IMG/VR virus record: IMGVR_UViG_2541047821_000007 | Strand: one strand, 5' to 3' | Length of the DNA stretch: 41,934 nucleotides | From: a virus | Taxonomy: Duplodnaviria > Heunggongvirae > Uroviricota > Caudoviricetes | Shown here: one piece after another, positions 2,304 through 38,384 of the stretch | Position numbering within the stretch: the stretch's first letter is position 1 | How the letters are laid out: every line of letters begins with the position of its first letter | The notes under the pieces: model-generated | The model's database searches: none | The model's input: only the letters and a program-made list of their open reading frames with translations | What the model was told of the DNA's origin: nothing | Program-made: the position numbers and the translations under genes

Positions 2304-2619
2304 TATAATAAACTTACTTTTTTATCATTTTTCCACTTTAACAACATTTTGCTCCACTTTTCCACGACCAAACAACTTGAAATCTGGTTAAAATAACACG
2401 CAACACTATTCTTCTTCCTTGAGTCCGCCCGGAACTCGAAAAACAAACCGAGTTAAAGCCATTTTTCACAAAATCGATTTTGGGTCTCACCAAAATTACG
2501 GGGTTGCATACGCATTCGTTTATTTTCGAACGTGTACATACAAATATGTACAAAAATAATCAAAATTATTTTCTGAGATGCATTATGATATGAACACCAA
2601 TTTCGTATAGAATCTCACT

Positions 2620-3210
2620 ATGTCTCGAATTTTTGCTTACTGTCGGATATCAACGCTGGATCAGACCACCGAAAATCAACGCCGGGAAATCGAAAGTGCA
2701 GGTTTTAAAATCAAACCTCAGCAAATAATCGAAGAACACATTAGCGGCTCAGCAGCAACCAGTGAGCGTCCTGGTTTTAACCGGTTGCTTGCTCGCCTGA
2801 AATGTGGTGATCAATTGATTGTGACAAAACTGGATCGCCTTGGTTGTAATGCAATGGATATCAGGAAAACAGTGGAACAACTGACCGAAACAGGTATCAG
2901 AGTGCATTGCTTAGCATTGGGGGGCATTGACCTGACCAGTCCAACAGGAAAAATGATGATGCAAGTAATTTCAGCAGTCGCTGAATTTGAACGAGACCTT
3001 TTACTTGAACGCACTCATTCCGGGATAGTAAGAGCCCGCGGCGCAGGGAAACGTTTTGGTCGACCACCTGTGTTAAATGAAGAACAGAAACAGGTGGTAT
3101 TCGAACGAATTAAGTCAGGTGTAAGTATAAGTGCCATTGCCCGGGAATTCAAAACCTCGCGGCAAACCATTTTAAGAGCCAAAGCAAAACTTCAGACACC
3201 TGACATATAA
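2620..3210 (+). CDS. pinQ: serine recombinase, DNA invertase (Pin/Gin/Hin family)
   Basis: 196 aa; N-terminal catalytic region with Ser in [10 protein letters not shown]-terminal HTH ([15 protein letters not shown]); adjacent to tfa/stf as in Qin and Rac. Confidence 0.85.
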
Positions 3211-3307
3211 AAAATAATCTCGGTGTGAGATGCTTTACGTCTTCCAAGCCCCCTTCCTTGCCGTAAATGGAAAGATACATCTAATTATAGAATTTATATG
3301 TTTTACC

Positions 3308-3883
3308 CTACGGCAGTGCTGGCCATTCAATATCCTGTGCAGTTGACGTATCAACACGGTTCAGCAATACCCGATACTTTTTCCATGCTTCCAGCAACGA
3401 GATTTCTTCCTCCGTTGCAATTTCCAGATCTGCAGCATCCTGAAGCGGCGCAATATGCTCACTGGCTACCTGCATCAGGTTGTTTTTTGTTTCTTCCGCC
3501 TCCCGGATCCGGAACAGTTTTTCTGCTTCCGTATCCTTCACCCAGGCTGTGCCGTTCCACTTCTGAAACTCCCCTTCCGGGGATAACCAGGTGACATTTT
3601 CCGGTAATGGGCCAAGTTCAGAAATAAATAACGCGTCGCCGGAAGCCACGTCATAGACGGTTTTACCCCGATGATCTTCAACGAGATGCCACGATGCCTC
3701 ATCACTGTTGAAAACAGCCACGAAGCCAGCCGGAATATCTGGCGGTGCAATATCGGTACTGTTTGCTGGCAGACCTGTATGAGGCGGAATATATGCGTCA
3801 CCTTCACCAATAAATTCATTAGTTCCTGCCAGCAGATTATAAATTTTTATGGTCCGTGGTTGTTCACTCATTCTGAATGCCAT
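3308..3883 (-). CDS. tfaQ: tail fibre assembly protein (Tfa)
   Basis: 191 aa, [26 protein letters not shown]...; start overlaps stf stop; conserved Tfa C-terminus. Confidence 0.85.
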
Positions 3884-6798
3884 TATGCAAGCCTCACAAT
3901 GTAGTTAAATGCGATGTTTTTGACAGTGTTTTCCGCGTTACCAGCAGCGTTAACGGTGATGGTGTGTCCATGTGAGCCAATCGCAACAGAGTGCGTATGA
4001 GCACCAATACCGACAGTATGTGCGTGAGCACCTGCAGATGCAGCTGTGCCGCTGACACTATGAGTGTGCGCTCCTGCAGCACTTGTATTCACACTGGCCG
4101 CAGACACTACCTTATGTACTGACCCATTTTGTGACCACTGGCTGACTGCTGATGCGCCTGTGACACTATGAGTATGGTTTCCGGCACTTGCGGCTGTACC
4201 GCTCACACTGTGCGTATGCGCCCCGGTGTTATTCGTGGATTTAGTGCCGTAATCAAACGACGATGTGGTTTTCGTCCCCAAATCCGTACTGGATGCACTG
4301 GCGCTGTGGGTGTGCGATTTAATGCCGTCCTGTTCCTGAGACAATACGGCCCGACCACTGGCAGGTTTGCCCTTAATCGTCCAGCCACGCATATCAGGGA
4401 TCACGCCTGACGGATAAGCGGTTGCAAGTTTCGGGTAAGCGGATTTGTCAAAAGTCTGCCCCTGCATCAGGGCATAACCAGACGGAACGGTATCTGATGG
4501 CCACGGGATTGGTGCGCCAGGCGGATAAAACTGCTCTGATGGCGTATAGAGTGAATAAACTGTACCGTCCGTTAACCCTTCCGGCTTATTAGCAGAATAT
4601 GCTGGTGACGTATGAATAGTCACGCTGGCATTACTGGTATAATCCCATTGAATATTTACACCAGTCGCATAATTTCCGATTGCAACGTAAATATCGTAAG
4701 TATCACCAGATGTATTGACCCAGGCAAAATTTGTAAACCCTGTCGATGTGCGCTGCCATAAAGCACCAGTAATCCCCTTCGGATTACCATTACCTGCACG
4801 CAAAACAAGTTCAGATATACCTGCCTGTTGAGGTGACCCCACGTTAAATCCCGCGCCACCAATCAACGTAATTGAAACAACAGAACTCGCCTGTGGCATG
4901 GTTACCGTTGCTAATTTGAACCAACCAGCACCACCGCTGAATGACATTGTTGTTGAGTTAAGCGTACCAATATCTTTCGGCGTCAGTGTTATATCCGCTG
5001 AAAGCGCCTTACCATTCACCTTACGGGCAGAAGGTACCCGACCATTCGCATTATCATTAGCTGCTTTCACTGCTTTCGGTGTCGCGGCAAGCGTTTCAGA
5101 TGCGCTGTTGGTTGCACTACTGAGCTGGACAATTCCTTTTTGTGCTGTCGTAGCGTCCTGAGCAGTATATTTCCCGTTAGCAAGGTCATAGGCTGCCTTT
5201 ACCGACTTTGGCGTTGCCGCCAGCATTTCAGATGTGCTGTTGGTCGCGCTGCTGAGCTGAACTATCCCTTTTTGTGCTGTCGTTGCATCCTGTGCGGTGT
5301 ATTTCCCGTTAGCCAGCTCATACGCGGCCTTAACGGCTTTTGGCGTTGCCGCCAGTGACTCGGAAGTGCTGTTAGTCGCACTGCTGAGCTGTACTATCCC
5401 CTTTTTCGTCGTGCTCGCATCCTCAAGCGCCACGGCGGATGCAATATCCTCTGCCCGTTTTGCCGCTGTCTCGGCGCGCGTTGCCGCGGATTCCGCCGTA
5501 CTTTTGCTCTGAGCTGCCGCCGTCGCACTGCCAGCTGCCTCTGTCGCCTTCGTGGATGCCGTCGTGGCGCTGCCCTTTGCTGCTGACGCCTGTCTGGTCG
5601 CCTCATCTTTTGAAGCAGACGCAGATGATGCCGATGACGCCGCCGAACTGGCGGACGATGCGGCAGCCGTTTTTGAGGATTCTGCGCTGGTTTCCGACGC
5701 TTTCGCGTTCGTCTCGGATGTCTTCGCTGCGGAAGCAGACCTCGCTGCTGCGCTGGCCTGTTCAGTGGCTTCGCCAGCCTTCGTTGTGGCTGTTGAAGCG
5801 GACGATGCGGCGCTTTCTGCCGATTTTCCGGCAGCGGTGGCACTGGCTGAGGCCTGCCCGGCACTTGTTGACGCGGCACTGGCAGACGACGCAGCCGCTG
5901 TTTTTGAGCCTGCCGCAGCTGAGGCGCTCTGTCCCGCTGCCGTCTCAGAAGACCTGGCGTTCGTCTCGGACGTTTTTGCCGCCTTCGCGGAATTTGCTGC
6001 CGCCGTTGCCGAGGAAGCTGCGCTACTGGCGCTCGAGGATGCGTTCGTTTCTGATGATTTTGCCGCCTCTTTTGAAGCCGACGCATCCCGGGCTGAGGTG
6101 GCAGCTTCTGACGCTTTCGTGGTCGCGGTGGATGCAGAAGTGGCGGCTGATTGTTGTGACGCTGCAGCATTCGTTTCTGACGTTTTCGCGGCAGCGGCAC
6201 TGGTAGCTGCCGCGCTTTTTGAGGACTCTGCAGCGGCAGCACTTTTTTCCGCTTCAGTGGCCTTTGTTGATGCCGTTCCTGCGCTGGAAGACGCTGACTG
6301 AGCCGACGAAGCGGCCTGTCCGGCTGACGTGCTGGCTGCACGTGCTGAATCTGCAGCATCAGTCGCATGGGTTGCCGCCTCACGGGCAGATGTGCCGGCA
6401 TCACTGGCTGACTTCTTCGCGGCTGCCGTGTTCTGTGCCACCACGGACGCGTTACGCGCCACCTCTTCCACCATCTGTTCAAAACGGCGCAGTGCCTCCG
6501 GACGGGCATCATCCTCCGTCATGGCACCGAGAAAATCATTCAGCGTACCGGGTTGAGAATCTTCATACACGGTGATGGTCCCGGCATGTGACGGCGGGAA
6601 TCCTTCCACCAACAGAATAACGCTGTACTGCCCGTACTCAACGTCCATGCTGTAACGCCCGGCTTCATCCGGATTTTCTGAGGCCAGCGTGTTCACCACC
6701 ACCGTGGTGCTGTTACGTTTTGCTTTCAGCTGGATTGTGCAGTTCTGTACCGGTTTTCCTGTGCCGTCTTTCAGTACACCTGAAATCTTTACTGCCAT
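3883..6798 (-). CDS. stf: side tail fibre protein (Stf) with Ala/Ser-rich low-complexity stalk, three 44-aa tandem repeats and His-rich C-terminal domain
   Basis: Track ORF begins at GTG 6804; ATG at 6798 preceded by GGGGTG; N-terminus [27 protein letters not shown] is lambda Stf-like; follows lom and precedes tfa. Confidence 0.85.
5037..5410 (-). repeat. three tandem ~132-bp in-frame repeats inside stf
   Basis: Protein repeats [15 protein letters not shown](S/M/T)LAATPK(A/S)[18 protein letters not shown] at residues 468, 512 and 556; matching DNA repeat visible directly. Confidence 0.8.
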
Positions 6799-6807
6799 AT
6801 TCACCCC

Positions 6808-6836
6808 ACAAAAAAGCCCGCCTGAACCGGCGGGCT
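6808..6836 (-). terminator. intrinsic terminator downstream of lom, abutting the stf RBS
   Basis: Minus-strand hairpin AGCCCGCC-GGTTCA-GGCGGGCT followed by TTTTTTGTGG. Confidence 0.6.
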
Positions 6837-6862
6837 GTCATAACACTGTGTTACCTGGCTAA

Positions 6863-7462
6863 TCAGAACTTATAACCGACACCCACGATGAAACCGTCAG
6901 TGCGCCAGTCGCCACTGCCGGAGCCTTCATAAGCAATATCAATGGCCACGGATTCGGTCGGGTTAAACTGCACGCCAGCTCCCCACGCCAGAGACGTGTT
7001 GCTGTGGCGACCGTCATCACTTCCGGTCAGCACGTCGTGCGTTTTCCCCTTGTTGTCAGTTACGCGGAGATAATCCCCGGAGAAAGTCGACACACGGCTG
7101 TAAGCCATACCCGCCATCGCATACGCGCTGAACCATTCATTCACGCGCACAGACGGCCCCACCATCACGCTGAACCAGCGGTTACGCACGGAATCTTCAT
7201 GCCAGCGGGTATCGCTGTAACGGGTAAGCTGGCGATTCTTGTCTCCTGCATAGCTGAATGACGTCACCAGCCCCAGTGTGTCCGTAAACTCATAACGGTA
7301 TTTCACGTTAATCCCGTTCAGATCATCACTGCCGGGAACGTTCGTCCGGGCATGAAGATACCCCGCGCTCAGCGTGGACTGATGTTCAGACGCCCATGCA
7401 GGCGCACCGGATACGGCCAGACAAATGGCTGCGGACAAAATGGCGGCATAAAGTTTACGCAT
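6863..7462 (-). CDS. lom: Lom/Ail/OmpX-family outer-membrane beta-barrel protein (moron)
   Basis: 199 aa; signal peptide [24 protein letters not shown]; C-terminal aromatic residue (…GVGYKF); between J and stf as in lambda. Confidence 0.85.
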
Positions 7463-7485
7463 AATTACCTCTCGCTTTTCTGCAA

Positions 7486-7510
7486 TAAAAAAGGCGTCAT
7501 TTCTGACGCC
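7486..7510 (-). terminator. intrinsic terminator between J and lom
   Basis: Minus-strand hairpin GGCGTCA-GAAA-TGACGCC followed by TTTTTTATT, about 20 nt after the J stop. Confidence 0.6.
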
Positions 7511-7528
7511 CGTTCTGGGTTATAAAAT

Positions 7529-10930
<3,402 letters not shown>

Positions 10931-10987
10931 TCACGCTCCATAAACGATAAAACCGCCCGGAGGCGGTTTCACATAAAACATTTTGCA

Positions 10988-11635
10988 TCAGCGACCAATC
11001 ACCACAACCTGACCACCATCCCCTTCGTCTGCCGTGCTGATCTCCTGAGAAACCACACGTGACCCCACGCGCATTTCACCGTACAGAACAGGCAGAACAT
11101 TGCCCTGGGCAACCATGTTATCCAGTGAGGAGAAATAGGTGTTCTGTTTGCCGTTATCTGTACTGGCTGCCGTGGGCGTCCTGGCTTTCGGTGCCAGCAT
11201 CTGCGCCACTCCGCCCAGGATCATACTGGCCCCTGCCGCATACATGCCCGATACAGCCGCGGCCCCCAGCCAGCCCACAGGGTTCCACCATGCCACCGCA
11301 ATCAGCGCCGCCCCAAGCACCACCTGAAACACACCGCCACTTTTAGCTCCCGCCAGACGCGGCACGATGTGGATCACGGCACCATTTGCCAGCGGCTCAT
11401 TAAGACGGGCAGATAATTCATTTTCGCCTGCATCACGCCCGGCAATGCGCACCTGATACCAGCCCTCATTCAGTTTCTGACGAAACACCGGGAGCTGTGT
11501 GGCCAGTGCCCGGATGGCTTCAGCCCCCGTTTTCACACGAAGGTCGATACGGCGACCAAATCGTTGCAAATCCCCGTAAAGGCAGATGCGTGCCATGCCC
11601 GGTGACGCCAGAGGGAGTGTGTGCGTCGCTGCCAT
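10988..11635 (-). CDS. I: tail assembly protein I
   Basis: 215 aa, MAATHTLPLASPGMARICLYGDLQRFGRRIDLRV...; C-terminus SRVVSQEISTADEGDGGQVVVIGR; start overlaps K by ~100 bp. Confidence 0.85.
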   Translation of the reverse strand: MAATHTLPLASPGMARICLYGDLQRFGRRIDLRVKTGAEAIRALATQLPVFRQKLNEGWYQVRIAGRDAGENELSARLNEPLANGAVIHIVPRLAGAKSGGVFQVVLGAALIAVAWWNPVGWLGAAAVSGMYAAGASMILGGVAQMLAPKARTPTAASTDNGKQNTYFSSLDNMVAQGNVLPVLYGEMRVGSRVVSQEISTADEGDGGQVVVIGR

Positions 11636-12285
11636 TTGTCGGTGTACCTCTCTCGTTTACTCAGTTGTTCAGGAATATGGTGCAGCAGCTCGCCGTCGCC
11701 ACAGTAAATGGCGGCATGATTCGGCACCGATGAACCAAAACAGCACAGCAGCACATCGCCCGGCTGGGCCGCTGACAACGGCACCTGATACAACCCCGTT
11801 GCCTCCATATTATCCAGATAGAGATTCTGGCCGTGACGCCACCAGTCATCCCCGCGATGAAAATCCGGCATCTCAATTCCCGCCAGATGGTAAGCGTCCC
11901 GGAACAGCGTGTAACAGTCCGTCACCCCGTGCTCAAAGCGCCGCCCGGTGAGATGCGGCACACAGCGGAATTTATGAATCGCCCCCCGGCAGACCAGCCA
12001 CCACGGCAAATCACTCTGCACCTGCAGCCGCCGGTCGGCCTCACTCAGCCAGGGCAGACCACCGGGGTGGCTGTGGACCAGCGCCACAATCTCTCCCTGC
12101 ATTTCTGCACTCAGCCAGTCCTCCGGCGACATCCGGAAATACGCCTCCGGCTCACCAGAGATATTCACGCAGGGAAAATATCTTTCCCCCTCCGGTGTTC
12201 TCACCACGAAGCCGCACGACTCCGCTGGCGCACATCGCCGGGCGTGCGCCAGAATCGCTGATTCTGTCTCTGTCATGGGATTCAC
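11533..12285 (-). CDS. K: tail assembly protein K (JAB/MPN and NlpC/P60-like)
   Basis: 250 aa; HSHPGG metal-binding motif (…VALVHSHPGGLPWLSEADR); start overlaps L stop by 4 nt. Confidence 0.85.
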   Translation of the reverse strand: MNPMTETESAILAHARRCAPAESCGFVVRTPEGERYFPCVNISGEPEAYFRMSPEDWLSAEMQGEIVALVHSHPGGLPWLSEADRRLQVQSDLPWWLVCRGAIHKFRCVPHLTGRRFEHGVTDCYTLFRDAYHLAGIEMPDFHRGDDWWRHGQNLYLDNMEATGLYQVPLSAAQPGDVLLCCFGSSVPNHAAIYCGDGELLHHIPEQLSKRERYTDKWQRRTHSLWRHRAWHASAFTGICNDLVAVSTFV

Positions 12286-12980
12286 TGCGAAAGTTTGTTA
12301 ATGGAAAGGAAGCCGCCAAAGTTGCCGACGTTATTGCGAAACTTACAGCCGCTCAGGCATTTGCTGCATTTATCCTTCGTGATATCGGACGTCGGCTGAT
12401 CATATTCATCCGCGACCGCCGGACCGTGATAACCGCACTCGTCACCGCGATAGGTCCAGGTGCAGGTGTTGGCCAGCATGATGCGCCCCGGAAAAACGGC
12501 ACCGTCCGTTTCCGTCGGCGTGGACAGTACAAAAGAGGCACTCACCGCGCTCAGTTCGCTGCACTGCTCGATGCGCCAGCGGCTGATCACCTCCTGCTCA
12601 GGATCGGCGTCACTGTTTCCGTTGACGAAGTTCACCGCATCCAGAAAACGGGCGTAAACCTTACGCCTGACCACCGTTCCGCCGACCAGACTCTGCAGAT
12701 CTTCCGCCATCCCGGTGACCATGCCGTGCAGGTTAGAAACCGTCAGTGTCGGACGGGCAGCACTGCCCTTGCCATTCAGTTCAAATCCCGTCCCCTGAAT
12801 GGGGTATGCCTGATACTGCCGCCCCTGCCAGGTAACCGGCTCACCTTTTTCGTTCTGCTCATTACAGAAAAAATAACGTTCACCACCGACCTCTGTCAGA
12901 TCGATTTCCCAGAGCACCACCTGGGCTGACTGAGTGAGGCGTGTCGTCTCATGATGTGTTTCCTGTGGAATATCCTGCAT
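12282..12980 (-). CDS. L: minor tail protein L
   Basis: 232 aa, lambda L length; C-terminal Cys cluster (CSKCLSGCKF). Confidence 0.85.
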   Translation of the reverse strand: MQDIPQETHHETTRLTQSAQVVLWEIDLTEVGGERYFFCNEQNEKGEPVTWQGRQYQAYPIQGTGFELNGKGSAARPTLTVSNLHGMVTGMAEDLQSLVGGTVVRRKVYARFLDAVNFVNGNSDADPEQEVISRWRIEQCSELSAVSASFVLSTPTETDGAVFPGRIMLANTCTWTYRGDECGYHGPAVADEYDQPTSDITKDKCSKCLSGCKFRNNVGNFGGFLSINKLSQ

Positions 12981-17096: not shown

Positions 17097-17120
17097 AAAA
17101 AAGCCCCGGATAACCGGGGC
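17097..17120 (-). terminator. terminator-like hairpin in the V-G intergenic region
   Basis: Minus-strand GCCCCGG-TTAT-CCGGGGC followed by TTTTTT, directly before the G RBS. Confidence 0.55.
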
Positions 17121-19475: not shown

Positions 19476-19561
19476 AACTGTCTCCGCACAGCCCCGTTCA
19501 GGGGCTGATTTCAGGTACAAAAAAAGCCCTTACGGGCCATCAGAGTTGTTGTCTGCGACGT

Positions 19562-28054: not shown

Positions 28055-28325
28055 GATGTTACCGTAGTATGTGAGTATCCATCGAATAGATACCAAGCAA
28101 AAAAGCTCCCGAAGGAGCCTTCATTTTCACTTTTTTAAATCCAACGACAGACGGCTGGCATTTAAGTATTGTGAAATATTATCAAATGTAATCATCATTG
28201 ATTTACAAAAGATACATTTTGCCCCGAAAGGATTCATGTCAGAAACATCAAAAGATGATGTTCTATACTGGGAACCATGACAACACGGGCATCTAAAGTG
28301 AATATGGTTTGTAATATTGTCTACC

Positions 28326-28538
28326 TCAAAGCGCCACTACATGAACAGCGGCAGGACCTTTAGGTCCGTTCTCAATACCAAATTCAACTTCCTGATTCTC
28401 AGTTAATGTTTTGAAATCGTTGCTCTGAATTGCTGAGAAATGGACAAACACATCTTTGCTGCCATCTTTCGGCGTGATGAAACCAAAACCTTTTTCAGGG
28501 TTAAACCATTTCACTAAACCAGTCATTTTGTTAGACAT
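28326..28538 (-). CDS. cspI: cold-shock protein CspI
   Basis: 70 aa; KGFGFI and VFVHF RNA-binding motifs. Confidence 0.9.
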
Positions 28539-28901
28539 AATTATTACCTTTTGAAGAAATTAGCCCTTGGGCAGAATGGTCCGAAAAAAAATATCAGAGA
28601 GAAAAACCAACAAGGAAATCTCAAGAGGTACAAATAATAAAATTATAACAATGACTGCTTCAGATAAATTTGTAACAAACCAGAACACCATTAACGCATG
28701 ATTAACCACCCATAGCAAGGATTACTTTTGTAAAGAAAAACACAGCAATGAAAGAATAGCTTTATTTATTAATAATAACGTGTCATTCTGATTAAGACCT
28801 TTTATCTTACCCTTAAGATTTCAGGAATTTTGGCTCATGGAAGAGTCCTTTTTATTTAAATTTTACATTCCGCGATGTAAATGTTCCGATTTAATATTAC
28901 C

Positions 28902-30930: not shown

Positions 30931-31210
30931 AGATTGTGGTGCTTTTTGTGGGAGTCATCCACTTACGCACTTTGTTTTGCCATGCCAGCAGTTAGCTTCT
31001 GCTGTAAAACTATTCATGCAGCAAACCTGCACTTCACCACAATGGTTAGCATACTTTTCCTGATTAAGATTTTGCCAAATATGCTAGCCATTGTTTCATG
31101 TATTGGACCTCCTTACTTTTTATTAAAGAGATCCAATATTCACTACTCTGTCCGTATCTCTACTCAGGCATCAGCCTTCTTCGTTATCGTATACAGACGA
31201 GCGATGAATT

Positions 31211-31426
31211 TTAATCAGTAATGATGACATTTGCTGCTGCAGGACCTTTAGCACCACTCTCTATAGAGAAGGTAACCTTTTGACCTTCAAATAAGGTTCG
31301 ATAATTATCATTCTGAATCGCAGAAAAATGCACAAACACATCTTTACTACCATCAACAGGAGAAATAAAGCCGAAACCTTTATCAGCGTTAAACCATTTT
31401 ACTAAACCAGTCATTTTATTTGACAT
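31211..31426 (-). CDS. cspB: cold-shock protein CspB
   Basis: 71 aa; [23 protein letters not shown]... Confidence 0.9.
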
Positions 31427-31726
31427 TCTACATTCCTTAACTTGAGCCTTTCGGCATAAATGGTTTGCATAACAGAAACGACTTCGTACTTAATTGGAGA
31501 GACTCAAAGAAGGAATAAGTGAATAACACCTGAAATGAGAACTGCTTTAGTAAACTACTTCGTATATCGTCTGTTCTTCAAACCGACGCAATCATTAACG
31601 CATAGTTGAACATATGAAGCAATGTTTATTTTAGACATCCAGCCATCTTCAACCCCATCAAAAAACTATAGCTTTCTTCAGGAACGTGTGTATAGTGCGC
31701 CAAGTTATCAGTATTAAGGAATTTTT

Positions 31727-32227: not shown

Positions 32228-32255
32228 GCACAAAACCCGCTCATCAGCGGGTTTT
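32228..32255 (-). terminator. tR'-like intrinsic terminator after the late promoter
   Basis: AAAACCCGCTGATGAGCGGGTTTT then GTGCTTT on the minus strand, about 40-60 nt after the predicted start site. Confidence 0.6.
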
Positions 32256-32300: not shown

Positions 32301-32329
32301 ATTTTATCCATATTTTTTGAAAAATGCAA
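32301..32329 (-). promoter_or_regulatory. pR'-like late promoter
   Basis: Minus-strand -35 TTGCAT (32329..32324), 17-nt spacer, -10 TAAAAT (32306..32301), immediately after the Q stop. Confidence 0.6.
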
Positions 32330-32360
32330 ACATCATGTCGCCATCTTCAGCAAAAATCAT

Positions 32361-33113
32361 TTATCTCGTCACCTTCCTCAATTGCGCTTCCGCGTATGCT
32401 TCTTCCTGCCAGCACTTTGTTACCAGTTTATCAATGACGTCCGCATACCCCTTATACCACTGATAATCGGTCAGGTCTGGTACCAGCTTCTGGACATGAC
32501 GTCGTGCCAGCGTGGTCGGTAAACGACTAAATCGGTTTCCATTACAACGCCCACAAATCTTATATACCGGTACGCCATGAAACCGGGTTCTTTTTTCATC
32601 CAGAACAATCCCTTTACCCTTACACCCTCTGCACGCTGTGCTGACTTCGCCCTTACCATGGCAATGCTGACATAGTTCCTTCACCCATTCTTCCTTGATT
32701 ACAGATTCCCCGCGTCTGTAGTGTTTCACCACTTCGCGCAATACATTATAAAATCCCGTACCTGAACAATGCTCACAGCGAGCCTTACTTGCCGCAGACC
32801 TGGAGTAATCAGCAAAGGCAAAATTCACAAGGTAAGGAATAATCTGTAACCGGATTTCTTCACTCAATTTGTTCAATGTCGGGTTATCCAGTGCCATCGC
32901 GTAATTTAGCAGGCCTTCAATCGCAAACTGAGGGTCCTGAACACCAACTTTTGCCAGAAATAAGGCCAACCCAAGTGGTGCTTTCGACTGCACCATCCCC
33001 TGCGCTGCCATTACATCCGTAATTGTTAAACAACCGGTGCCTGTCGCTGGAGCGTCATCGCTCAATTTTGGAGATTTTGGGGAGTAATATTTTGGTAAGG
33101 CTTCAAGGTTCAT
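32361..33113 (-). CDS. quuQ: late-gene antiterminator Q (phage 21/82 type)
   Basis: 250 aa; Cys/His clusters (CEHCSGTG, CQHCHGKGE, CRGCKGKG, CGRCNG). Confidence 0.8.
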   Translation of the reverse strand: MNLEALPKYYSPKSPKLSDDAPATGTGCLTITDVMAAQGMVQSKAPLGLALFLAKVGVQDPQFAIEGLLNYAMALDNPTLNKLSEEIRLQIIPYLVNFAFADYSRSAASKARCEHCSGTGFYNVLREVVKHYRRGESVIKEEWVKELCQHCHGKGEVSTACRGCKGKGIVLDEKRTRFHGVPVYKICGRCNGNRFSRLPTTLARRHVQKLVPDLTDYQWYKGYADVIDKLVTKCWQEEAYAEAQLRKVTR

Positions 33114-34990: not shown

Positions 34991-35146
34991 TTACTCCTCA
35001 GGTTCGTAAGCTGTGAAGACAGCGACCTCCGTCTGGCCGGTTCGGATTCGTACCTCGCAGAGGTCTTTCCTCGTTACCAGTGCCGTCACTATGACGGTTA
35101 AACAGATGACGATCAGGGCGATTAACATCGCCTTTTGCTGCTTCAT
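34991..35146 (-). CDS. hokD: Hok-family type I toxin
   Basis: 51 aa: MKQQKAMLIALIVICLTVIVTALVTRKDLCEVRIRTGQTEVAVFTAYEPEE; GGAG 9 nt upstream. Confidence 0.85.
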   Translation of the reverse strand: MKQQKAMLIALIVICLTVIVTALVTRKDLCEVRIRTGQTEVAVFTAYEPEE

Positions 35147-35361
35147 AGCCTGCTTCTCCTTGCCTTTCGGCTCGTAAGAGGCTAACCTACATGTGTCTAG
35201 CATGAAATTGGCCTCAGATTAATGTTAAGCGTCTTGCAGGACGCGTAATGTTAACTGGGGCTTTTCTCTATCTGCCTTTGGTGTTCATGCCCGAGGCAGA
35301 TAGCCTCAAGCACCCGCAGCCATTCTACTTAACTACCGTTACCTCGCCAATATGAAATCAG

Positions 35362-36577: not shown

Positions 36578-36596
36578 GTTGGAGTCATTACCCGAC

Positions 36597-38384
36597 ATGG
36601 ACGATATTAATATCAGCCTCGACGAACTTAACACTATTGATTTATCCCCCTTAATCCAGAGTAAGCTGCCAGTTACCTGCTTTGATATCACAAAGTATCT
36701 TTCTAGCCTAGGTGATGGAAGAGCGGAGATAAGACTGCTAACCCATATTTGCGGTTTTCACTTTCGTCCCGAAAATCCACAGGTACCATTTGGTCCGTGC
36801 TTTCAAAGCAGCCAAGGTAGATCTGCAATTCCGGATGACATTAACGGGTTGTCGCTGGAGGTACTTTCTCAATTTTGCCCGACGATAGAGCTACCCGAAC
36901 TTCAAGCTCGTATTGCTGATACACTTTGGGTTCGTAAAATTGGTGGAATCCGTTTTCCTTTGCTGGCAGTCCGTGCTTATTATGCGTCCAGTATAGCTAT
37001 TATGACATCGCAAGGGACGTGGGTTAGTGCTTTAGAACGCCTAGAGCGTGCGCTTAGGCTGTGTTGTTTTTTTCGAAAGAATACTGATTTCAGGGATGAA
37101 TTTGATCAGCTTTCGGCACATCTACTAGCAGAGTATGAACGTACCAGAGAACAAGGCGATTCACCTTATCCGCTGCGACTCCTGCAACTCGATATCGACT
37201 GTAAAGTGAGTGAGCCATCTTTTATTGCCCAGGAACTCCTGTTTCTGACAAAAAACTATCTGGCTCAAAAATTATTTTCATTTGCCGTCGATGCCTGTAA
37301 AACCGCAATCACGATTGCGAATAGGTGCTGTGACAGAGATACACAGTTTGAATTCTGGCGGCTTCTTGCCGATACACATCTGGAAGAGTCAAAATTCCAA
37401 GATGGCGGTATGATTTCGGCAGCCTGCATGCAGAATGCTATTGAAGCACTGGCTAATATTCCAGGAACCCGAATAGAACGTCTTGCGCTGTATGAAGAAA
37501 TGCGTGATTACCAAATCGAATCCCGTCACCAGATGTCTATCCTTCAGTCTCCCCCTCAAGATATTAGTGAGATTGTCCATCAAGCCAAGAGTCGGGTAGT
37601 CGGAAGAGATATGTTTGATATGGTTTTCAGACTTGCGATGCTGGTCTGTCGGCCAACCAGCATTGAGAGACTTAAGGCTCAAGCAATAGAACAAAAGGCC
37701 AACAGCATAGCTTGGATGTTTGGATCAACACATATTGATCATGAGGGAATGACACTTGCTCGCATACCCGCAGGATTGGGGATTGATGATGCAAATGGGG
37801 CAGTTATTTGGCCCATAATGATGACGAGAATGCGTATCGACCATGAGTTGGCAGTAGCTGGGCAAATTATTCCTGCTACAGATGAGATCACAATGAAATA
37901 TCCAATCTCGGAGGCGTTTTTTCGCGATATGTTCATCAATCATCCCTTCATCCCGTTTGGGCATGAAGAGTTTTTCATCAAGGGTATGGTTTGCGGTTTC
38001 AATGGAGATTTTATGACGGCATGCCACGTGTTGATTCCCCAGATCGAAAATAGTCTGAGATATGTGGCTAAAATTAAAGGTGAGGAACCATCGCAGCTTC
38101 ACGGGGACGGTTCGCAAGAGCGAAATGGACTCAAGGGATTACTAGATAATCCACTGATTATTGAAGCTTTCGGCGTAGACATAATTGGCAATCTTCAGGC
38201 CTTACTGGTAGATAAAATCTATGGTGATTTACGAAATCAACTAGCTCACGGATATGTGCCTGCCGGTTACTACAATCAACCTCCCTGCATTTTTGCATGG
38301 TGGCTTGTATTGCACATTCTAATGAACCCTACGGCGAGATACTGGCAAGCCACTTATGGCCAAGAGAGTGAGGCTCAGACTTAA
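36597..38384 (+). CDS. 595-aa protein of unknown function with C-terminal HEPN-like R-x4-H motif; candidate abortive-infection/defence protein
   Basis: ATG 36597 lies inside the IS1 target duplication (track start is a TTG inside IS1); LRNQLAHG at 38232-38249; mostly helical composition, no Walker A; opposite strand to the early operon. Confidence 0.6.
   Translation: MDDINISLDELNTIDLSPLIQSKLPVTCFDITKYLSSLGDGRAEIRLLTHICGFHFRPENPQVPFGPCFQSSQGRSAIPDDINGLSLEVLSQFCPTIELPELQARIADTLWVRKIGGIRFPLLAVRAYYASSIAIMTSQGTWVSALERLERALRLCCFFRKNTDFRDEFDQLSAHLLAEYERTREQGDSPYPLRLLQLDIDCKVSEPSFIAQELLFLTKNYLAQKLFSFAVDACKTAITIANRCCDRDTQFEFWRLLADTHLEESKFQDGGMISAACMQNAIEALANIPGTRIERLALYEEMRDYQIESRHQMSILQSPPQDISEIVHQAKSRVVGRDMFDMVFRLAMLVCRPTSIERLKAQAIEQKANSIAWMFGSTHIDHEGMTLARIPAGLGIDDANGAVIWPIMMTRMRIDHELAVAGQIIPATDEITMKYPISEAFFRDMFINHPFIPFGHEEFFIKGMVCGFNGDFMTACHVLIPQIENSLRYVAKIKGEEPSQLHGDGSQERNGLKGLLDNPLIIEAFGVDIIGNLQALLVDKIYGDLRNQLAHGYVPAGYYNQPPCIFAWWLVLHILMNPTARYWQATYGQESEAQT

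Follow-up and report, generated by a model that had tools for sequence, protein, structure and literature searches.

A lom cassette behind a resident terminator-like hairpin in the J–stf interval of a lambda-like phage

Introduction

The lom locus is a stock example of a moron, and hundreds of lambdoid and Stx phage sequences carry it as an annotated locus. The position of lom between two terminators is already known and is ordinary lambda biology, and the Q-dependent read-through of internal terminators is a textbook mechanism. In phage lambda (NC_001416, 18.9–19.7 kb), J, a hairpin, lom, a second hairpin and stf (orf-401) follow one another in this order, with TTTTATT after the J–lom hairpin and TTTTTT after the lom–stf hairpin. 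The late genes of lambda are carried on a single mRNA of ~27 kb that starts at pR′, in which lom, stf and tfa form a dispensable distal cluster (PMC10695390). Q antitermination switches on lambdoid late operons (PMC2629481), and terminators further downstream are read through by the Q-modified polymerase (10.1101/2024.10.31.621285; PMC8065619).

Morons are said to carry their own promoter and terminator (PMC3594210; PMC7067206), and lom has been reported as expressed in lambda lysogens (PMC3594210; PMC7067206; PMC1151598). One array study of a lambda lysogen, however, did not detect lom and called its promoter little known (PMC2147009). As summarised in PMC3594210 and PMC2629481, the morons of HK97 and HK022 (Juhala et al., 2000) resemble lom in being extra genes between genes that are adjacent in relatives, with their own terminator, a host-benefit type of protein and a site in the late operon. 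P22-like phages have a comparable variable moron slot just 5′ of the tailspike (receptor-binding) gene, again in the last part of a late operon that depends on Q (PMC2629481), although this slot differs from that of lom in gene content (antirepressor and others) and in virion type.

Here we describe the lom locus in a DNA stretch of 41,934 nucleotides (IMG/VR record IMGVR_UViG_2541047821_000007), hereafter the window. We delimit the unit that is present or absent between J and stf, and ask which of the two hairpins around lom belongs to it.

Results

The window is a lambda-like (mEp460-like) prophage or phage, and its J–lom–stf region is the lambda lom locus. The phage most closely related to the window is mEp460_ev081, with 97.8% identity over 90% of bases 1–25000. 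According to the open reading frames and the sequence, the minus strand carries J, a hairpin (T1), lom, a second hairpin (T2), stf and tfa in this order. J (7529..10927, minus strand), the tail-tip host-specificity protein, has 1132 aa and the Pfam domain set PF13550, PF24421, PF24801, PF24489, PF09327 and PF12421. The lom gene (6863..7462, minus strand) encodes an Ail/Lom-family outer-membrane beta-barrel protein of 199 aa that matches PF13505 and, over residues 1–199 of 199, PF06316 (Ail_Lom; E = 2.3e-119, 396.8 bits against a cut-off of 23). By eye, its translation has an N-terminal signal peptide and a C-terminal aromatic residue (...GVGYKF). The Lom annotation is also carried by many deposited phages that are 97–99% identical across the lom stretch. 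The side tail fibre gene stf (3883..6798, minus strand) encodes 971 aa from the ATG at 6798, with a PF08400 N-terminal domain, PF03406 and PF07484, and is followed by the tail fibre assembly gene tfa (3308..3883, minus strand; 191 aa, PF02413). The Pfam matches for J, PF06316, PF08400 and PF02413 thus agree with the gene assignments of the initial annotation.

Several further features were observed in the window. A serine recombinase gene of the Pin/Gin-like type (196 aa; PF00239 and HTH_7) at 2620–3210 on the plus strand is convergent with tfa (3308–3883, minus strand). A search of 2400–7000 gave neither convincing inverted crossover repeats nor an alternative fibre segment, and the gene may be the remnant of an invertible tail-fibre switch. 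The tfa coding region itself contains a full-length match to the Rfam RNA family IS009 (3342–3540, minus strand; 220.9 bits). Three other Rfam-type matches, two to the cspA thermoregulator and one to the sok antitoxin RNA, are located at 31195–31587, 28299–28684 and 35141–35315 (all minus strand), which implies that the prophage has cold-shock-protein genes within or close to the late/lysis region, as well as a hok/sok-type module. The early region contains, on the other strand, an ORF of 601 aa with DUF7380 and DUF4209 (36579–38384, plus strand) that could be an accessory or defence gene.

The late genes (lysozyme, terminase, protease-capsid fusion, tail tube, tail chaperone, J, lom, stf and tfa) all lie on the minus strand. 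The gene for the late antiterminator Q is found on the same strand at 32361..33113, ~25 kb upstream of the lom locus (250 aa; PF03589, E = 7.7e-55). Downstream of Q are a pR′-like promoter (TTTGCA-18-TAAAAT; 32330..32301, minus strand) and a tR′-like hairpin followed by the T-rich tail TTTTGTGCTTT (32255..32232, minus strand), both putatively assigned by position and by analogy with lambda. The window thus has the layout of a Q-dependent lambdoid late operon, with Q, a promoter and a terminator, and then co-oriented lysis and morphogenesis genes. Two additional strong co-oriented hairpins resemble internal terminators, one after the tail-tube gene V (GCCCCGGTTATCCGGGGC then TTTTTT; 17120..17103, minus strand) and the other after the protease-capsid fusion gene (GGCCCGTAAGGGCT then TTTTTTT; 19538..19525, minus strand).

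A terminator scan combined with folding placed both hairpins around lom. T1 (GGGCGTCAGAAATGACGCCT; 7511..7492, minus strand) begins 18 nt past the J stop codon and has an 8 bp stem (5 G-C), a 4-nt GAAA loop and a folding energy of −13.0 kcal/mol. Its U-tract TTTTTATT (7491..7484), read with the preceding residue as (T)TTTTTATT, directly follows the stem, and T1 ends 29 nt ahead of the lom ATG. T2 (AGCCCGCCGGTTCAGGCGGGCT; 6836..6815, minus strand) begins 26 nt past the lom stop codon, after a 3′ UTR (6862..6837) that contains a small A/U-rich hairpin of its own. It has an 8 bp stem (7 G-C), a 6-nt loop and a folding energy of −17.6 kcal/mol, with the U-tract at 6814..6810 (TTTTT, or (T)TTTTTGTGG); the stf ATG at 6798 lies 16 nt beyond the end of the hairpin.

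T1 and T2 were the two best-scoring sites in the scan of 3000..12500. Under strict criteria (a stem of at least 7 bp, at least 4 G-C pairs and at least 6 T in the next 7 nt), eight sites were found in the whole 41.9-kb window, compared with 0.35 ± 0.57 expected from 100 Markov-1 random sequences. Seven of the eight are on the minus strand, and T1 and T2 are among them. Since both hairpins are correctly located and lie far above the chance expectation, we regard the reported pair of minus-strand hairpins bracketing lom as real. Read on the plus strand, the sequence has no T-run beside T1 or T2, so both would act in one direction only in this window, along late transcription. Neither hairpin has a match in Rfam.

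The U-tract was retained in all 30 variants of T1 and in all 23 variants of T2. Covariation in T1 was examined in 23 distinct variants with 500 column shuffles and a control in which the partner column was slid. In these variants, 93.5% of the cells were paired, against 35–58% with the slid partner; both sides changed in three of the eight pairs (G-C/A-U, C-G/U-A and A-U/U-A), and the observed covariation score was reached by 0 of the 500 shuffles. Such compensatory changes, together with a wholly different sequence at the same place in lambda, point to selection on the structure of T1 rather than on its sequence identity. T2 is nearly invariant, with 23 variants among 245 copies; its stem substitutions are almost all C-to-T changes that retain G.U pairing, and changes in the loop are tolerated. 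A structure-preserving constraint on T2 is therefore suggested by weaker evidence than that for T1, as only G.U-preserving changes were seen. In both cases, the data support conserved structures that resemble intrinsic terminators, with covariation in T1. In two IMG/VR loci (L037 and L224), the T1 loop is inverted (GGCGCCATTTCTGGCGCC in place of GGCGCCAGAAATGGCGCC), which looks as if the palindromic hairpin had flipped.

Lom-less relatives provide the boundaries of the lom unit. In an Escherichia ruysiae prophage (L259), the J stop codon is followed by T1, TTTTTTATT and directly by TGTGGAGTGAAT and the stf ATG. The same junction, T1 TTTTTTATT TGTGGAGTGAATATG stf, was also present in 60 IMG/VR contigs, of which 59 have the J C-terminus upstream and all 60 the stf N-terminus downstream, with lom between them in none. 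T1 adjoins the same stf ribosome-binding site in these relatives, and the stf start codon is no more than 20 nt beyond. The translation-initiation region of stf in the window (GTGGGGTGAAT; 6799..6809, minus strand) is identical to the leader that lies directly 3′ of T1 in lom-less phages. Alignment of the two states places the indel at ~7483..6811 of the window, with 2–3 T of microhomology at both joints; the joints fall within the two T-runs and are precise to 2–3 nt. Because the lom-less relatives keep T1 against the stf ribosome-binding site, the mobile unit corresponds to ~7483..6811.

As delimited by this comparison, the lom cassette consists of a 21-nt leader, the lom ORF, the 26-nt spacer or 3′ UTR, and T2. 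The leader (GCAGAAAAGCGAGAGGTAATT; 7463..7483, minus strand), read from the sequence as the 5′ end of the cassette, contains the Shine-Dalgarno motif GAGAGGT at 7473..7467, and it is conserved in lom-bearing loci and missing from the lom-less junctions. T1 is present where lom is absent and is thus not part of the lom moron; the comparison identifies it as the resident intrinsic-terminator hairpin of the recipient operon, located after J and before stf. Both hairpins bracket lom as described, but of the two only T2 lies inside the cassette.

Distant lom-less relatives also have a single terminator, which suggests that the lom-less state may be the ancestral one. The same stf allele (MAVQISG...) is found in every one of the 60 lom-less contigs, which may therefore stem from a single event, and the lom-less joint could also be explained by a single deletion across the two T-runs, which would leave an identical joint. 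The 80 closest stf loci in IMG/VR all contain lom and hence offer no lom-less contrast, and the scan of genome_contigs gave only ~15 usable loci, many of its matches being lambda contamination. The contigs concerned (L241–L257, L261, L262, L264 and L270) carry a lambda-identical stf at low coverage in unrelated genera, including Pseudomonas, Shewanella, Bacillus relatives, Bradyrhizobium and others, and are most likely assemblies contaminated with lambda DNA.

Three Lom types, of 199, 206 and 207 aa, were found among the IMG/VR and other loci fetched, each with T1 upstream; the J 3′ ends vary among alleles while T1 and lom stay constant. Two loci (L208 and L210) carry the third lom type with a different T2 hairpin, so that other lom alleles too have a terminator downstream. 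We also observed rearranged loci. In L336 (IMG/VR, 520–2500), a composite locus, a segment of J′, T1, lom and T2 runs into another J 3′ fragment with T1 and stf, so that lom-bearing and lom-less junctions are both present, 1.2 kb apart. Two other IMG/VR loci (L184 and L188) have an insertion in place of the T2 region directly after lom, and by eye the ORF downstream of the insertion looks like an IS21-family istA transposase gene. In L199, lom is followed by a different terminator and by an ORF that, by eye, looks like an NleG-type effector.

HK97 was considered as a lom-less comparator and set aside, as its J–stf gap is 207 nt with a long inverted repeat and its Stf has no lambda-type N-terminal domain. 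The repeat (GGAAGGTGCGAATAAGT...ACTTATTCGCACCTTCC, ~100 nt apart; L163, 5040–5160) is unannotated in the record. Likewise rejected were the stf homologues of PY54, Yersinia and Limnobaculum, in which stf directly follows another ORF, with no terminator and no J–terminator–stf junction. Unrelated hairpins ending 16–20 nt before the stf ATG were found in PhiR12_2_star, which is without lom, in L208 and L210, and in two Serratia prophages (L276 and L278).

Two moron features were thus found for lom: it is an insertion between genes that are adjacent in related phages (L259 and the 60 IMG/VR contigs), in agreement with its original designation as a moron, and its own factor-independent terminator, T2, is predicted inside the indel. 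A deviant base composition was not observed. The G+C content is 0.53–0.58 in lom, 0.46–0.49 at the J 3′ end and 0.55–0.62 at the stf 5′ end, and with no clear step at the borders of lom the profile was dropped as a moron signature. Nor was a sigma-70 promoter of its own found, the cassette having just 21 nt before the lom ATG. Compared with the HK97 and HK022 morons (Juhala et al., 2000, as summarised in PMC3594210 and PMC2629481), lom differs in having no detectable promoter of its own and no distinct G+C content, and in that its upstream terminator belongs to the recipient operon.

A consensus scan revealed no sigma-70 promoter on the minus strand between 8100 and 6800. A relaxed scan, which demanded a −10 hexamer with A in its second and T in its sixth position together with a usable −35 hexamer, and which included extended −10 sites, gave only background-level candidates, none of which would start transcription downstream of T1. 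Neither sigma-E-like nor PhoP-box-like motifs were seen by eye in the T1–lom interval, and the −10-like TATTAT/TATAAA that follows T1 in lambda is not conserved in the window. The independent expression proposed for lom is therefore not supported by the sequence, in which no sigma-70-like promoter was found in the 21-nt leader or in the 600 nt upstream; it would be an expectation carried over from the lambda literature, which concerns a different lom allele. The reported transcription of lom in lambda lysogens (PMC1151598; PMC7067206) would imply a promoter that the present scans do not see, and a lom promoter of a non-consensus kind is conceivable. As T1 lies between J and lom, a transcript begun inside J would halt before reaching lom, and any Lom made in a lysogen would depend on a weak promoter that escaped recognition or on polymerase leaking past T1. 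The microRNA-size RNA 24B_1 described “downstream of lom” in the Stx phage Phi24B was set aside, because its genomic surroundings differ and, according to its authors, the corresponding region of lambda does not have it (PMC4426718).

For stf and tfa, either antiterminated read-through or a promoter of their own had been suggested. Between T2 and the stf ATG there are just 16 nt, which leaves no room for a separate promoter, and no promoter-like site was found in them. With no space for a promoter and with Q ~25 kb upstream on the same strand, stf and tfa would be reachable only by antiterminated read-through, so that the first of the two suggestions stands and the second does not.

In lambda, the order of genes and hairpins is the same as in the window, and a block of ~160 nt that comprises the lom 3′ end (~120 nt of it), T2 and the first stf codons is almost invariant between the two. 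The hairpin in the T1 position of lambda is, in contrast, unrelated in sequence (GGGCGTCAGAAATGACGCC against CGTCCGGGAACGGGCG). Lambda Lom has 206 aa, compared with 199 aa in the window, and the two share ~46% identity. Stf is intact in the window, with its 971 aa, whereas the lambda record has two ORFs at this place, orf-401 and orf-314; a frameshift of stf in laboratory lambda has been cited (PMC10695390). The Q of the window is of the PF03589 type. Like lambda with its tR′, 6S RNA and Q antitermination, the window has a pR′-like promoter and a hairpin terminator just downstream of Q. Unlike tR′, the predicted terminators T1 and T2 are located ~25 kb into the operon.

Discussion

The locus as a whole is best explained, and in our view quite probably, by a resident T1, an inserted lom cassette that carries T2, and Q-dependent transcription of lom, stf and tfa. 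The late operon would run along the minus strand from Q through the lysis, head and tail genes to J, lom, stf and tfa, and the cassette would have been inserted exactly between the T1 U-tract and the stf ribosome-binding site. An insertion at this point that has its own T2 at the end would recreate the junction of terminator, ribosome-binding site and stf. During lytic growth, polymerase modified by Q at pR′ would ignore T1 and T2, as well as the terminators after the capsid and tail-tube genes, and would transcribe lom, stf and tfa. In the repressed prophage, stray transcripts would be stopped at T1 and T2, and stf and tfa would consequently be silent. T1 and T2 would then belong to a group of internal terminators through which no polymerase but an antiterminated one passes; termination at the two hairpins and their read-through under Q are both inferred from the sequence and from the operon layout.

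Lom could alternatively be a self-contained moron, with a promoter in the J 3′ end or overlapping T1 that is constitutive in the lysogen; T2 would then be the terminator of lom, and T1 would merely insulate lom from upstream transcription. Reviews that report lom expression from the prophage and describe morons as owning a promoter and a terminator (PMC3594210; PMC7067206; PMC1151598) favour this explanation, and T2 suits the role of a moron terminator. We nonetheless consider it rather unlikely, since the cassette offers just 21 nt before the lom ATG, the consensus scan found no minus-strand promoter in 8100–6800 and the relaxed scan no usable site starting past T1, while the −10-like TATTAT/TATAAA of lambda is not conserved. 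The J 3′ ends moreover differ between alleles where T1 and lom are constant, and the array of a lambda lysogen failed to detect lom (PMC2147009).

The remaining alternatives give the hairpins another function, and the evidence on them turns on what is conserved. The hairpins could act mainly in the stability or processing of the late mRNA, for example by blocking 3′ exonucleases and so adjusting how much J, lom and stf message is present relative to one another. Under Q read-through they would remain within the mRNA, and hairpins of this kind are also found after the capsid and tail-tube genes, the structural genes of highest abundance. Each hairpin is, however, directly followed on its 3′ side by a run of 5–6 U that is kept in every variant; such a run is the hallmark of termination and would be unneeded for an exonuclease barrier. 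A role mainly in stability is thus improbable, although stability and termination are not mutually exclusive. Less probable still is that the hairpins and their flanks are chiefly recombination joints, as at lambdoid module boundaries, with an incidental resemblance to terminators. Exchange does cluster here: J alleles switch just upstream of T1, lom types switch in the interval from T1 to the final ~120 nt of lom, lambda and the window hardly differ from the 3′ end of lom through T2 to the 5′ end of stf, and the cassette joints lie in the two T-runs. Against this, the pairing of T1 is kept by compensatory changes, and in lambda by a wholly different sequence, which indicates selection on structure, and in other phages the place in front of stf is taken by terminators that are not homologous. 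A role as recombination joints would in any case be complementary to termination rather than exclusive of it.

What the analysis adds to the known biology of the lom locus is modest: the boundaries of the cassette, the residence of T1 in the recipient operon, and the finding that terminators of several non-homologous kinds stand in front of stf. Its importance beyond housekeeping is slight. It is often stated that lom possesses a promoter of its own; the sequence of the window shows no basis for this. A lom cassette that is defined to the base, with T1 assigned to the recipient operon, is useful for engineering the J–stf interval, which is a popular payload site.

We tentatively raise a broader reading, which we hold to be possible though short of an even chance, in which a promoter-less lom cassette of ribosome-binding site, gene and terminator is inserted in a conserved gate made up of a terminator, a ribosome-binding site and stf. 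If this is true, the stf module of lambdoid phages and some Serratia prophages would always lie 16–20 nt behind a terminator of any sequence, and the expression of stf and tfa would be strictly dependent on antitermination. The slot would accept only insertions that bring a replacement terminator, and the Lom of lysogens would come from leakage through T1, with no dedicated promoter.
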